DNA of 64,000 nt from Eledone cirrhosa. Taxonomy: Eukaryota. Made by a program: the position numbers and the translations under genes. The notes under the pieces are model-generated. The model saw only the letters and a program-made list of their open reading frames with translations. It made no database searches and was not told where the DNA came from. The stretch is from positions 936 through 64,935 of the forward strand of contig CAXHJY010001577.1 of NCBI GenBank assembly GCA_964016885.1. The letters are read 5' to 3'. Of the stretch, positions 1 to 63,780 are shown one piece after another (the stretch's first letter is position 1; the number at the start of each line of letters is the position of its first letter).

Positions 1-2078
1 TATCTCCAAATTATTTGTCGAGCAATATTGGCCATGACTGCTGCTATGGTAGCAGGCAGGCCGCTGTCTTATTAGCAAACCACTTTCCACTGATTGACCT
101 CGATGTCACGTGATTGATTCTTTTTGAATTTGCCACCGACGCAGAGGCAGTGATTTTCTCTATGGCTAGGAATTCAGTCCACGCTTTGCTATTTTCTATC
201 CACTGCATTATTTTATTAATAAGTTTCCAGATTCCACGCTTTCCCTGGATACTTAGATGAGAATAGTCTTCCCTGACGACGGAATGATTCTCTTTGTTTT
301 CTTCGGAAAATATATTTATTCCATTCCAGAAACTAATTAGTTGGAAGTGATATTTTAGTAAGTAAGTTAATTTATAATTTTCTTATTTTACGTCTCTCAT
401 ATTATTGTTCTGCAACCCCATGCGTTGAACCACAAAGTTAGTAAGACAAAAATCTATATATTTGCTAGCATTGATATGCATCTGTATGTATATATATGTT
501 ACTAGATATTAATTCTTTATAATTATCTCCAAATTATTTGTCGAGCAATATTGGCCATGACTGCTGCTATGGTAGCAGGCAGGCCGCTGTCTTATTAGCA
601 AACCACTTTCCACTGATTGACCTCAGATGTCACGTGATTGATTCTTTTGAATTTGCCACCGACTCAGAGGCAGCGATTTCTCTATGGCTAGGAATTCAGT
701 CCACGCTTTGCTATTTTCTATCCACTGAATTATTTTTTAATAAGTTTCCAGAGTCCAACACTTTGCCTGGATACTTAGATGAGAATAGACTTCCCTGACG
801 ACGGAATGATTCTGCATGTTTTCTTCGAAAATATATTTATTCCATTCCAAAAACTAATTAGTTGGAAGTGATATTTAGTAAGTAAGTTAATTTATAATTT
901 CTTATTTTATGTCGTCTCTCATATTATTGTTCTGCAACCCATGCATTGAACCACAAAGTTTGTTACTTGGTATTAAATATTTATATATATGCTAGCATTG
1001 ATATGCAATCTGTATGTATATATATGTTGTTATTCTTTATTTATTATTGTCTCCATATTATTTGTTCGGAGCAATGATTTGGCAATGTAGGCATGAGTGC
1101 TAGCTATGGATAGCAGGCAGGCCGCTGTCTTATTAGCAAACACTGTATTGAATACTTGATGTACGTGACGTGATTGATTCTTTAGATTGCCACCGGACGC
1201 AGAGGCAGTGATTTTCTATGGCTAGGAATTCAGTCCACGCTTCTTTGATATTGGATCTGGGTTGGTATTTGTATTAATAAGTTTCCAGATTCCACGCTTC
1301 CGCTGTGATACTTAGATGAGAATAGTCTTCCCTGACGACGGAATGATTCTCTTTGTTTTTCTTCGGAAATATATTTATTTGTGGGGGTGGGGAGTGTGTG
1401 GAGGTGGTTGGATGAGTGAGTTGGAAGTGATATTTTAGTATGAAGTTATTTTATAGTATTAATATTATGTTATATTTACGTTGTTCTTGTTGGAACCAGG
1501 TAGTTGATCGTTGCTAGCATTGATATGCATTGTCTGTATGTATATATTGTTACTAGATATTTAATTCTTTATAATTATCTCAAATTATTTGTCGAGCAAT
1601 ATGGCCATGACTGATGCTATGGTAAGCATGTGCGCTGTCTTATTAGCAAACCTTTCACTGTTGACATTGACCTCGATGTCCGTGATTGATCTTTTGAATT
1701 TGCACCGACTCAGAGGCAGCGATTTTCTGGTAGGGCTATTCAGTCGCTTTGTATTTTCTAATCCACTGAATTATTTTTTAATAAGTTTCCAGAGTCCACA
1801 CTTTGCCTGGATACTTAGATGAGAATAGACTTCCCTGACGACGGAATGATTCTGCATGTTTTCTTCGGAAAATATATTTATTCCATTCCAGAATCTAATT
1901 AGTTGGAAGTGATATTTTAGTAAGTAAGTTAATTTTGTAATTTTCTTATTTTACGTCTCTCATATTAATGTTCTGCAACCCCCATGCATTGAACCACATA
2001 GTTACTAAGACAAAACCTATATATTTGCTAGCATTGATATGCATCTGTATGTATATATATGTTACTAGATATTAATTA
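1..2078 (+). repeat. Tandem array of ~522-bp HHR-containing unit (family A), ~4 copies, partly error-rich
   Basis: TATCTCCAAATTATTTGTCGAG recurs at 1, ~524, ~1048 and ~1576; copy 3 has many indels; mirror image of 7086-9166. Confidence 0.95.
268..347 (+). ncRNA. Type I hammerhead ribozyme, family A (one per unit)
   Basis: Stem I CTTCC/GGAAG; core CTGACGA (273-279); stem II GGAATG/CATTCC with internal C(TTCG)G hairpin; GAAA (329-332); palindromic stem III AACTAATTAGTT; GUU cleavage triplet. Confidence 0.8.
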
Positions 2079-2079
2079 T

Positions 2080-3865
2080 TTATATATATATATATATAAT
2101 ATATATATATATATATATATATATTATATATATATATATTATATATATAATATAGTATGTATGTATATATATTATATATATATATATGTATGTATATATA
2201 TATATATATATGTATATAAATATATATATATAATGTATATATATATATAATAATATATATATATATATAGTATATGTATGTAGATAATATATATATAATA
2301 ATATATATATATATATATATATGTAAATAAATATATATATAATATATATATATATATATATATATATATATATGTAAATAAATATATATATATAATATAT
2401 ATATATGTATGTATATAAATATATATATATAATATATATTATATATATATATATATGTAAATAAATATAATATAATATATATATATATATATATATATAT
2501 GATAAATATATATATATATATATATATATATATATGTATGTATATAAATATATATATAATAATATATATATATATATATATATGTATGTATATAAATATA
2601 TATATATAATATATATATTATATGTATGTATATAAATATATATATATAATATATATATATATATATATATATTATATATTGTATATAAATATATATATAC
2701 AATATATAATATATAATATATATATATATATATGTATGTATATAATATATATTAATATATAATATATATATATGTATGTATATAAATATATATATATAAT
2801 ATATATATATATGTATGTATATAAATATAGTATATATATATATATATATATATATTTATATATTATGTATTATAATATATATATATATATATATATATAT
2901 ATGTATGTATATAAATATATATATATAATATATATATAATATATATTTCATGTATGTATATAAATATATATATATAAATATATATATAATATATATTTAT
3001 GTATGTATAGTAAATATATATATATAATATATATATAATATATATTTATGTATGTATATAAATATATATTATTAATATATATATATATGAATATATATAT
3101 ATAATATATATATAGTATATATATATATTAATATATTATATATATATATATAATATATAAATATATATATATAATATATATATATATATAATATATAATA
3201 TATATATATATAATATATATGATATTATAATATATATTATATATATATATATATATATATATATATAATATATAAATATATATATATAATATATATATAT
3301 ATTATATATATATATATATATATATATATATAATATATATATATATATATATATATATATATATAATATTATATAATATATATATATATATATATATATA
3401 TATATATATATATATATATATATTATATATAATATATATATATATATATATATTAATATATATATATATATATATATATATATATATAATATATATATAT
3501 ATATATATATATTATATATATTTATATATATATATATATTATATATATATATATATTATATATATATATATATATATATATATATATATATTATATATAT
3601 ATATATATATATATATAATATATATATATATATAATATTATATAATATATATATAATATATATATAAATATATATATAATATATATATATATATATAATA
3701 TATATATATATATATATAATATATATATATATATAATATAATATATATATATATATAATATATATATATATATAATATATATATATATATATATAATATA
3801 TATATATATATAATATATATATATATATATATAATAATATAATATATATATATATATATATATAA
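2080..3865. repeat. (TA)n microsatellite with variant units
   Basis: Direct inspection; mirrored at 5313-7085. Confidence 0.98.
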
Positions 3866-61408: not shown

Positions 61409-62830
61409 CAGTTTAGCCCGGCGTTGCTCAGGTTTGTTCATTTGCTATGAAAAGTTACATATAGGTAAACATGGCTTGAAAGCGAATAAGTTTATCAATT
61501 AAGTGCATAAAGCAGTTGAACCGGTTATTAAAAGTTACGAACCAATTATCATTTTGGACAATCAATGATGGGTTAATAATCTTCCAATAGCGAATTTAGT
61601 AGACCAAAGTTGCAAGATGGTGGCCCTCATGCCGCTGGGTGTCAGATCTGTCCGCCATGGGTGACCCTACCAGGAAATAGTTTTCCAGACGGCATAGCTC
61701 CAACACCTCCAACACCTGCACCAACATCTATAGCCCCTCTTTCTAGACGATATTGCGTGTCATCCCTTGAGGAGTGTAAGCAAACAGTACATTCCTGCTC
61801 CCTACGCGGTTACAGACAACATAAAGTTGGCCATGGGAGAAGCATGGCTACCCCAAATGGATGCCCGCCAGCGACAATGTTTGCCCTTGTGACTTGATAA
61901 TGGACATGGCAAAACATGGTCTCACCGGGAATTGGGATCGCCGGAAATCGAAGGGATATCCGACGCCGAGGGGAAAAGGTTCATCCTTGGCAGTGTATTC
62001 GGCAGAATTGCCAGAAGTACAACACTATGGGTGTTGTCATATTAATATTTAACCAATGAAAGTCGTAAAAAATAAATAATTAAACATTTCGATTCATATG
62101 TCTATAGCATTAATCTGTTATATGAAGTGTTATTTTGCGGGTAGTTATTTGCAATAAGCCGATTTAAAATACACCAGAAAAGCCGTATGTCTTTACGGAA
62201 CTCCAATGTCTCCCCCAGCAGTTAAATTATAGAGAGGGGGAATAATTTATTATAGAGAGAGGGAAGAGCGATGGAGAGAGTAAAGCTAAGAGACTATAGG
62301 GAGGTGTGTAAAACAGTGTTGTCATATAGAGAGTGAAGAGCGACAGAGAGAGTAAAGCAGTTAAATTATAGAGAGGGGGAATAATCAATTATAGAGAGAG
62401 GGAAGAGCGACGGAGAGAGTAAAGCTAAGAAACTATAGGGAGGTGTGTTAAACCTCAAAGCAGGAAGAGAGTAAAGCAGTTAAATTATAGAGAGGGGGAA
62501 GAGCCACGGATAGAGCGTTATGACTATGTTTGTTGTTGTATAAAATGATGTGTTGCTTAGGTTTCAAAGTTTATGTCGCGTTCCTGAACGAAGTTTTGTC
62601 GGTGTTGGGTAGTAGAGAGAGTGAATAAGCGTGTAAGAGAGAGGTTTACAGCATGTGTTAAGTTTTATCGACTTTTTTCATAGAAGCAGGAAATATTTTG
62701 CAAAGTTTATTAAGCGTTGACCATCTTTGGTAAATTTGGAGCTCATTGAAAAGAAAATCATCAAAATCGGTAGAGAAATGTGGAAATGCATAAAAATCAT
62801 ACACACACACAGACAGACATCTTCATTTAT
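61409..62830 (-). mobile_element. Deletion derivative of the 36548-41389 Helitron
   Basis: Matches its 3' ~550 bp and its 5' region (62220-62830); Rep/Hel mostly deleted. Confidence 0.88.
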
Positions 62831-63413
62831 ACCATAAAAGTGGTTTTGTGCTTGCGTGTATTTGTTCTCATCCTCCACATAACGACGTATTATCTCCGCT
62901 TTTTCCGTTCATTGCCAAGGAACGTCTTCACCAACCAAACTATCGTATATCGGTTGCAACGTTTTTCGAAATATTTACTTCTGCGTTCACAGATTGATTT
63001 TTTTAGTTTCAGAAGATCCCGTTAAGGGTGAAAGCAGCGATTCTTTGCTTAAACTTTAATCTGTTATTTTAATAAATATTTGCTCTAGGGTTCTTATATC
63101 TTTGATATATATTTATTTTATCGAGCCCTCTTTGGATTTTAGTCTTCACATTTATTATTATTACTATATATATATATATATAATTTTGGTTATATATGAA
63201 ATAAATATGGTTTTATAAAGGTAGTTACCATTTATTAATATTATTGATATTATACTCCAGAAGAAAATTGTAGAGTGCCTCTAATTTGTTATAAACTAAG
63301 TTTGTAGAATAACCAACAGATAAAATAACTCATTGCTTATATATATATATATATATATATATATATATAGGAGGAGGTTATAGTTCACTTGAAGCATTGT
63401 GTAATGAGGTATA

Positions 63414-63780
63414 AACGTTAGAATATGTGTAATAAGGCCATGACAATGCAGATATGGACATAGAAAAAAGAATGCAATAGTGAGAGATATTGATGAGAAA
63501 TCGTGTTTCACCTTGAATTTATTTAAATGTCCTTAATTTTCGAGATAATATCTCTTCTTCGGAGGGAAGTAAAAGTCTCAGACCAGCGTCTTAAATTTCT
63601 AATTAAGACGCTGGTCTGAGACTTTTACTTCCCTCCGAAGAAGAGATATGTCGAAAATTAAAGACATTTAAATAAATTCAAGGTGAAAGACGATTTCTCA
63701 TCAATATCTCTCACTATTGCATTCTTTTTTCTACGTCCATATCTGCATTCTCTTGGCCTTATTACACATATTCTTACGTT
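63414..63780. repeat. ~180-bp-arm palindrome with minimal HHR-like motif (63531-63565, minus)
   Basis: Arms 63414-63594 and 63602-63780; CCT-CCGAAGA-AGAGATATTATCTC-GAAA-AT-TA-AGG. Confidence 0.8.

Follow-up and report, generated by a model that had tools for sequence, protein, structure and literature searches.

Type I hammerhead ribozymes of the kind discussed below process multimeric transcripts to RNAs of unit length, in many cases as dimers formed through a palindromic stem III, and the products can circularise. Among the described systems closest to the locus reported here are the hammerheads in the pseudo-long terminal repeats (pLTRs) of Penelope-like elements (PLEs) (Cervera and de la Pena 2014, PMC4209133) and the metazoan retrozymes that lack long terminal repeats (non-LTR retrozymes) (Cervera and de la Pena 2020, PMC7229834; Li, Clavereau and Pollet 2026, 10.64898/2026.07.22.740005); here and below, statements on published papers refer to the available portions of their texts. 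As many as 16 hammerhead families in one coral and 126,247 motifs in axolotl are on record (PMC7229834). The enzyme moving animal retrozymes has so far been inferred from co-occurrence and homology: mobilisation by PLEs was proposed in PMC7229834 and argued on those two grounds in 10.64898/2026.07.22.740005. The protein of the PLE Poseidon cuts and extends both strands in vitro, two internal start sites define the tail, and a dimer is predicted, the integration steps after first-strand priming being stated as unvalidated (PMC11167929). In this study, we analyzed 64,000 nt of the Eledone cirrhosa genome (assembly GCA_964016885.1, contig CAXHJY010001577.1, positions 936 to 64,935 of the forward strand), hereafter the window, which spans nearly the whole of a 64,935-base contig, has a GC content of 30.7% and belongs to a genome of 3.0 Gb. 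An initial annotation had described in it about ten unrelated hammerhead families forming a retrozyme/PLE system. The hammerhead folds are genuine and belong to a system that is already published (2014, 2020, 2026). Our reading, to which we give a probability of roughly 0.7, is that the window samples genome-wide PLEs of the Neptune-type and Hydra clades together with retrozymes that use their machinery, inserted by what appears to be two-ended priming. The regular build of the back-to-back insertions hints at how the enzyme inserts them.

The anatomy of the insertions carries this reading. Two fixed 3' ends, a long and a short one, adjoin (TA)n tracts in each of seven families; counted from the cleavage site, they lie at approximately +56/+175 in family A, +130/+164 in H, +209/+270 in F, +76/+143 in E, +21/+89 in I, +43/+133 in C and +110/+146 in G. 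Many copies are back-to-back pairs within (TA)n, with both halves truncated at the 5' side, and other copies are single halves. Among the same-family pairs with both ends called (most loci being the first listed matches in the first 100 Mb of contig C1 rather than a random draw, and two of the I pairs being a local duplicate), 70 of 72 combine a long end with a short end, one is long+long and one short+short, in retrozymes and autonomous elements alike. The short+short call turned out to be a miscalled long+short pair, which brings the count to 71 of 72. The long end stands on the left in 36 pairs and on the right in 34, and the binomial P for 70 of 71 long+short is about 3e-20. Halves of a pair are also more alike than random copies (0.981 vs. 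0.947 in 22 A pairs).

This long+short pattern suggests two-ended priming by a Penelope-type enzyme. The PLE protein would cut both strands of a (TA)n tract, and each DNA end would prime reverse transcription at one of two fixed internal RNA sites, long or short, both ends usually being primed on the same RNA or on RNA of the same source locus. The two complementary DNAs (cDNAs) would stop at variable points and be joined head to head, often via a few shared bases, while a circular or multimeric template would give several near-identical units per half. Because non-coding repeats bear the same scars, they offer direct sequence evidence of insertion by PLE machinery. Alternatively, one cDNA might be copied back on itself to form the inverted half, with later deletions across the unstable palindrome making the arms unequal. 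A form of such self-priming has been proposed for rotifer PLEs (PMC3846280). With later deletion it would account for many of the pairs, and it would fit the excess of symmetric junctions and the near identity of the halves; copying the long half first and then back would itself yield one long and one short end. However, the short half extends more than 20 nt beyond the template that the long half could provide in 19 of 57 pairs, and by up to several kb in Neptune copies, which argues against simple fold-back. Moreover, junctions between two families need two templates, and both strands were extended on RNA in vitro (PMC11167929). We consider fold-back an unlikely origin of the pairs.

Junctions of two families are rare. 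An automatic search returned five, compared to 113 same-family junctions, and two were kept, the F/A junction of the window and an A/F junction at another locus (L094). The other three were set aside: one had (TA)n between its halves (L149), one had a 27-nt gap between old copies (L185), and the Hydra/D case of the window is uncertain, its boundary being set by the reference cut used in the analysis. Unpaired halves gave more, namely the E/I junction of the window, a Hydra-type nuclease fragment joined to A (L085), another hammerhead family joined to H (L099) and, less cleanly, L089, so that about six are counted in total. These could be stacked insertions, in which a later element landed beside an older one and the intervening (TA)n was deleted. 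(TA)n tracts do attract clusters of elements, a single target site is not recovered from the flanks of L094, and only about six such junctions stand against the 113 of one family. Furthermore, the F half of the window seems to predate the A half: F stretches lying next to each other are 95.6% alike vs. 99.3-100% in three other F arrays, and the A units are 97-100% alike; thus, the two-family junctions may be stacked insertions. On the other side, the junctions are tight, the two F/A cases overlapping by 1-3 nt, and they stand head to head like same-family pairs, the F/A junction of the window obeys the long+short rule, and three junctions carry a short inverted piece of one partner. Stacking is, in our judgment, only slightly short of an even bet.

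Besides the age of the F half, several other points weigh against two-ended priming or against a part for the ribozyme in it. The long+long pair at locus L136 is real, and the two-family pair in L094 is long+long as well. The two halves end at almost the same position more often than expected by chance, in 6 of 35 cases for A, 11 of 23 for E and 3 of 11 for F, as fold-back would also predict. Junction overlaps of 1-9 nt occur in 58 of 104 cases, a figure that has no control and that BLAST can inflate. In vitro, the two strands showed no difference in start site, the ribozyme was dispensable for insertion, and no RNA sequencing reads ended at the cleavage site (PMC11167929). For F, G and D, the dimer of minimum free energy (MFE) computed from the isolated motif is not the hammerhead fold. 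Self-cleavage, action as dimers and circular RNA would apply to the families of the window by analogy only. A bolder version, in which two-ended priming is obligatory, is put forward tentatively, and we lean slightly against it as a whole: a protein dimer would make asymmetric use of the start sites, with one of the two serving each DNA end, each active site would occasionally take another RNA, retrozymes would be PLE cargo as marked by their scars, Hydra-clade enzymes would be the likely drivers of A and H, and the genome would hold about 100,000 hammerheads. Neither the long+short rule nor the two-family junctions were found in literature searches on a two-ended model, which left the subscription literature mostly outside.

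Further examination of the motifs themselves relied on a structure-constrained scan of both strands, which found 29 strict type I hammerheads in the window compared to a mean of 0.1 (maximum 1) in 30 block-wise dinucleotide shuffles. A flexible scan, which requires both core boxes and helices I, II and III in type I order and additionally accepts U3-A8 and U4C cores, gave 32 motifs at a score of 9.5, far above the 0.4 (maximum 2) of 40 shuffles. An initial scan demanding a paired 10.1-11.1 base had yielded only three strict matches, and this criterion was then loosened. The type I core boxes and helix order are present, with a U3-A8 core in E and G and a U4C core in D. All 11 main sites of the initial annotation (268, 4196, 15967, 12024, 15080, 15400, 21329, 26367, 34968, 49159 and 54063, with 21329, 26367 and 49159 on the minus strand) take the type I fold in the scan. 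The short palindromic stem III ascribed to most families is present in A, C, D, E, F, G and H, and B and I have a hairpin of their own instead. The two-strand MFE structure equals the expected dimer fold for H, E, C, A, I and B. Compensatory or G-U changes among genomic copies support stem I in F and H and stem II in A, in a further family K and in the family of site 59288; copies of E, G, C and I are too similar to show or deny covariation. The families do share sequence, contrary to what had been proposed: across the core and stem II, 26 of 28 nt are identical between H and I. F is 68% alike to K. Three sites initially listed as weaker cases (57953, 59288 and 63531) all fail the scan. That at 57953 is nevertheless a decayed copy of a folding family, J, with relatives in two sampled loci (L034 and L168) that fold as hammerheads. 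The family of 59288, a conserved motif of atypical form, has 13 further copies in the sample (12 elsewhere and one in the window at 41974-42048), and its helix I has only about 2 bp. The site at 63531 is a putative minimal-type motif that, within the sampled sequences, occurs in this window only. No match to Rfam reached the gathering score in the window, and in E-value mode no hammerhead was among the 150 of 391 matches listed, which microsatellite matches dominated. A separate scan for motifs lacking helix III found none in the window at its threshold.

The motifs are not confined to the window. Exact family patterns matched 25,320 times for H and I together, 23,644 for F, 11,726 for E, 2,293 for A and 1,907 for G across the 3.0-Gb genome, and the reversed control pattern of each matched 0 times; these five patterns cover A, E, F, G and H+I, but not B, C, D or the three weak families, and their total of 64,890 is a floor. 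In 28 stretches of 10 kb at arbitrary positions, 17 motifs were found vs. 1-4 in five shuffles, which extrapolates, with a wide error, to roughly 150,000 motifs per genome. The window is about 3.6-fold richer than the sampled regions (10 clusters vs. 2.7 expected), and its (TA)n content is twofold. A sample of 0.87 Mb, largely selected for containing a motif, held 350 motif matches in 45 clusters, 21 of them with two or more copies. The window is thus a rich draw from something that is spread over the whole genome. Many families per genome have already been published. The density of families in the window is not remarkable by itself.

The initial annotation had pictured these families as a diverse set of non-autonomous ribozyme RNAs. 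This is true of A, B, F and H, which are non-coding units with a GC content of 33-35%, but not of four of the nine main families (C, E, G and I), which are the 3' ends of protein-coding PLEs and continue 5' into long untranslated regions (UTRs) and PLE open reading frames (ORFs; E from one locus), so that they are not stand-alone non-coding tandem units. D was placed with neither group. Tandem non-coding arrays with one hammerhead per unit are formed by A (516-522 nt), F (413-545 nt) and H (310 nt), whereas B was found as roughly a single unit carrying a terminal repeat and not as a tandem. Such tandem families might instead be satellite DNA that arose on the spot when unequal crossing-over multiplied PLE ends, the ribozymes being carried along without a function. 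Local amplification is suggested in the 2026 preprint, which reports cleavage in only one of nine dimers (10.64898/2026.07.22.740005), and the 102-nt I repeat at 54067 is indeed a PLE end repeated locally in tandem, with a unit that folds no better than shuffles (z 0.2). However, arrays at unrelated loci share the same two end positions beside (TA)n, in inverted pairs, the stems are kept by compensatory change, and circular folding of the units is stronger than in 40 shuffles for A, H, B and F (z -3.4, -4.7, -2.8 and -2.4). We regard a purely satellite origin as very unlikely.

The label "Naiad" given to the element at 12024 was mistaken: Naiad has an N-terminal nuclease before the reverse transcriptase (RT) and no canonical hammerhead, whereas C closes an 821-codon frame in a full-length relative with a C-terminal nuclease and, judged against PMC8557442, the motifs of the Hydra clade (CxCX5C linker, DKT, CxxC and CxH, with RWK reading RWT), along with (TA)n targets and a hammerhead. 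I closes a 7-kb inverted insertion with a Hydra-type nuclease region; for I and for the frame at 14165-15034, the assignment uses the linker and nuclease region only. G is the 3' repeat (pLTR) of a Neptune-type PLE, with a 1,176-codon open frame in two of the ten copies examined (L049 and L050 of L049-L058); these ten show partial tandems, a hammerhead-bearing pLTR and inverted 5' copies. Some copies have this frame in one piece, whereas in others it breaks close to a C-run (L049, L050, L055, L056), which natural variation or sequencing error may explain. The G family is very young, all 59 scored copies being 99-100% identical and 57 of them free of stops. Pfam RVT_1, a C-terminal GIY-YIG domain, a CX2-5CxxC linker and DKG and GxKF motifs are found in the translation of the window copy, which was classed as Neptune-type by motifs from PMC8557442 rather than a tree, Neptune and Nematis not being told apart. 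The "intact ORF" reported at 27643-29925 is not intact, as the copy is 5'-truncated and its N-terminal part lies in another frame than the RT-nuclease part. At one locus, E follows a Neptune-like nuclease fragment 54% identical to that of G and is, judged by this fragment, the 3' end of a second Neptune-type PLE. A further PLE family, about 21% alike to the Neptune protein of the window, was seen at L094 (69-1327, minus strand) and L121.

The proposed link of the hammerhead families to PLEs and retrozymes is thus borne out by (TA)n targets, inverted partial tandems and the two-end PLE tail signature on non-coding repeats. The partner is not necessarily this Neptune element: the ribozyme core of H is found in the Hydra-type family I as well, and in one case an endonuclease fragment of Hydra type is joined to an A insertion. 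As far as tested in a comparison that lay outside Dfam and Repbase, the families appear new by sequence, and the word "ribozyme" occurs 0 times in the available text of a repeat study of O. vulgaris (PMC13282606). The H unit (34800-35109) also recurs nearly unchanged in sequencing runs labelled as four organisms, as a single variant-free contig in runs X1 and X2; horizontal spread, shared ancestry, diet or contamination may account for this. Each of four runs, whose contigs come from libraries of a kind not given, has a contig looping back at 310 nt, which fits tandem DNA or a circle.

Features of the window (positions are those of the whole stretch; a dot marks features without a single strand)
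Feature	Position	Strand	Basis
Family A tandem array, ~520-nt unit, hammerhead 268-347; mirror arm of 7080-9166	1..2084	+	motif scan
Family B, 653-nt unit, 38-nt terminal repeat; hammerhead 4196-4277 (+), mirror copy 4937-5018 (-)	3866..5263	.	motif scan
Back-to-back pair of family A, long-ended half on minus (7080-9471), short-ended half on plus (9476-10492), flanked on both sides by (TA)n	7080..10492	.	
Hydra-clade PLE 3' remnant: endonuclease 10602-11036, 3' UTR, hammerhead C 12024-12094	10602..12124	+	
Hydra-clade ORF fragment, broken, CxCX5C linker; back to back with D	14165..15034	-	
3' end of family D; hammerhead at 15080-15194 with a U4C core and a long stem II	14961..15246	+	
Back-to-back pair of family E, its short end on the left and its long end on the right; hammerhead with U3-A8 core at 15400-15437; putative Neptune-type PLE 3' end	15280..15577	.	
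Family B copy, hammerhead 15967-16046	15607..16277	+	
Long-ended tandem of family F (unit of 413 nt), hammerheads at 21329-21371 and at 21742-21784; left side of a two-family junction that overlaps by 3 nt	21060..21786	-	
Short-ended array of family A, ~7.4 units (516/522 nt); right side of the F/A junction	21784..25602	+	
Neptune-type PLE, 5'-truncated: RT and GIY-YIG frame 27643-29982, N-terminal part in other frame, hammerhead G 26367-26414 (U3-A8 core) at 3' end	26221..31003	-	
Back-to-back pair of family H with a 310-nt unit: 5.0 units on minus (short end), 3.4 on plus (long end), units 99-100% identical, 8 hammerheads	33170..35789	.	
D, decayed back-to-back copy	43623..43875	.	
Family I, long-ended 3' end of a Hydra-type PLE; hammerhead at 49159-49209; runs on 5' into a UTR rich in microsatellites	49070..49700	-	
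Two-family junction: E minus (53823-54029), short inverted E piece, 2.6 copies of 102-nt I piece plus (hammerheads 54063, 54169, 54271)	53823..54329	.	
Family J decayed hammerhead, U4C core	57953..58007	+	
Atypical hammerhead-like motif; stem II covaries; second copy near 41974-42048 (-)	59281..59336	+	
375-nt inverted repeat, putative minimal-type motif per arm	63410..63784	.	

It is worth noting that bases 1-4556 mirror 4680-9166, microsatellite interruptions included, and that the differences are mostly gaps (156 gap positions vs. 72 mismatches in A, 27 gaps vs. 0 mismatches in B). The mirror repeat of 1-9166, centred near 4600, is probably a long-read fold-back artefact of assembly; hence, the A copy at 268 and one of the B copies at 4196 and 5018 may not be separate insertions. 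The A units in this repeat alternate between two variants. Other repeats were also observed in the window. A broken Helitron-like region spans 36503-41539, with PIF1 helicase frames at 36871-38289 on the minus strand (Pfam), and part of it recurs at 61406-61990. A fold-back element flanked by (TA)n (41567-41692 and 50833-51041), present in 31 searched sequences and without a scored hammerhead, may be another PLE-type 3' end. A short repeat ending at (TA)n (13324-13447, 51600-51718 and 62958-63079) forms inverted pairs too, has a hammerhead-like fold with a changed core and was found in 21 searched sequences. A 532-nt tandem unit at 60332-61252 has the first core box but no scored hammerhead, and its relatives were found in eight searched sequences, while a dispersed repeat of about 190 nt (18275-18447, 19620-19812, 35835-36026 and 44486-44665) resembles short interspersed elements (SINEs) in size and spread.

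Insertions with clear boundaries and nearly identical sequence number in the thousands in this genome, for retrozymes and PLEs alike; together with the very young Neptune-type family and a 310-nt repeat with identical units, they make it a good test bed. The long+short rule also provides a sharp prediction for in vitro priming.

Compared to the PLE pLTR hammerheads (PMC4209133), the motifs described here share the type I topology, the palindromic helix III, a helix II with an added or mismatched base at its foot, the U3-A8 variant, the presence of many families per genome and opposite-strand pairs 100-700 bp apart. They differ in that helix III is mostly a palindrome of 3-5 bp rather than absent and that several motifs have long insertions in stem II, and the opposite-strand pairs are here resolved into insertions with a long and a short end. 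With metazoan non-LTR retrozymes (PMC7229834; 10.64898/2026.07.22.740005), they have in common low-GC non-coding tandem units (310-653 nt long here) that each hold a single type I hammerhead, the large number of families, and coexistence and shared sequence with PLE ends. Expression and circles were shown in those papers, whereas our families are known from genome sequence. Inverted (TA)n-targeted insertions or a two-end tail on retrozymes are not described in the available text of either paper, and the words "inverted" and "microsatellite" occur 0 times in that of PMC7229834. The diagnostic motifs of the Hydra and Neptune clades (PMC8557442) are present. As in described PLE insertions (Arkhipova et al. 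2013, PMC3846280; Craig et al. 2021, PMC8557442; Frangieh et al. 2024, PMC11167929), the copies form partial tandems with an inverted copy that is truncated on the 5' side, only one end has a tail, the targets are AT-rich or (TA)n, and there are two internal start sites, but the tails measure about 34 to 120 nt here vs. 30-40 nt in published PLEs. Two-family junctions occur here, whereas no cross-mobilisation was seen between the two PLE types of PMC3846280, and, unlike in published PLE accounts, the one-long-one-short pattern was counted and is nearly obligatory. The window is a new instance of a known system, and its points of interest are the near-obligatory long+short rule and the two-family junctions.

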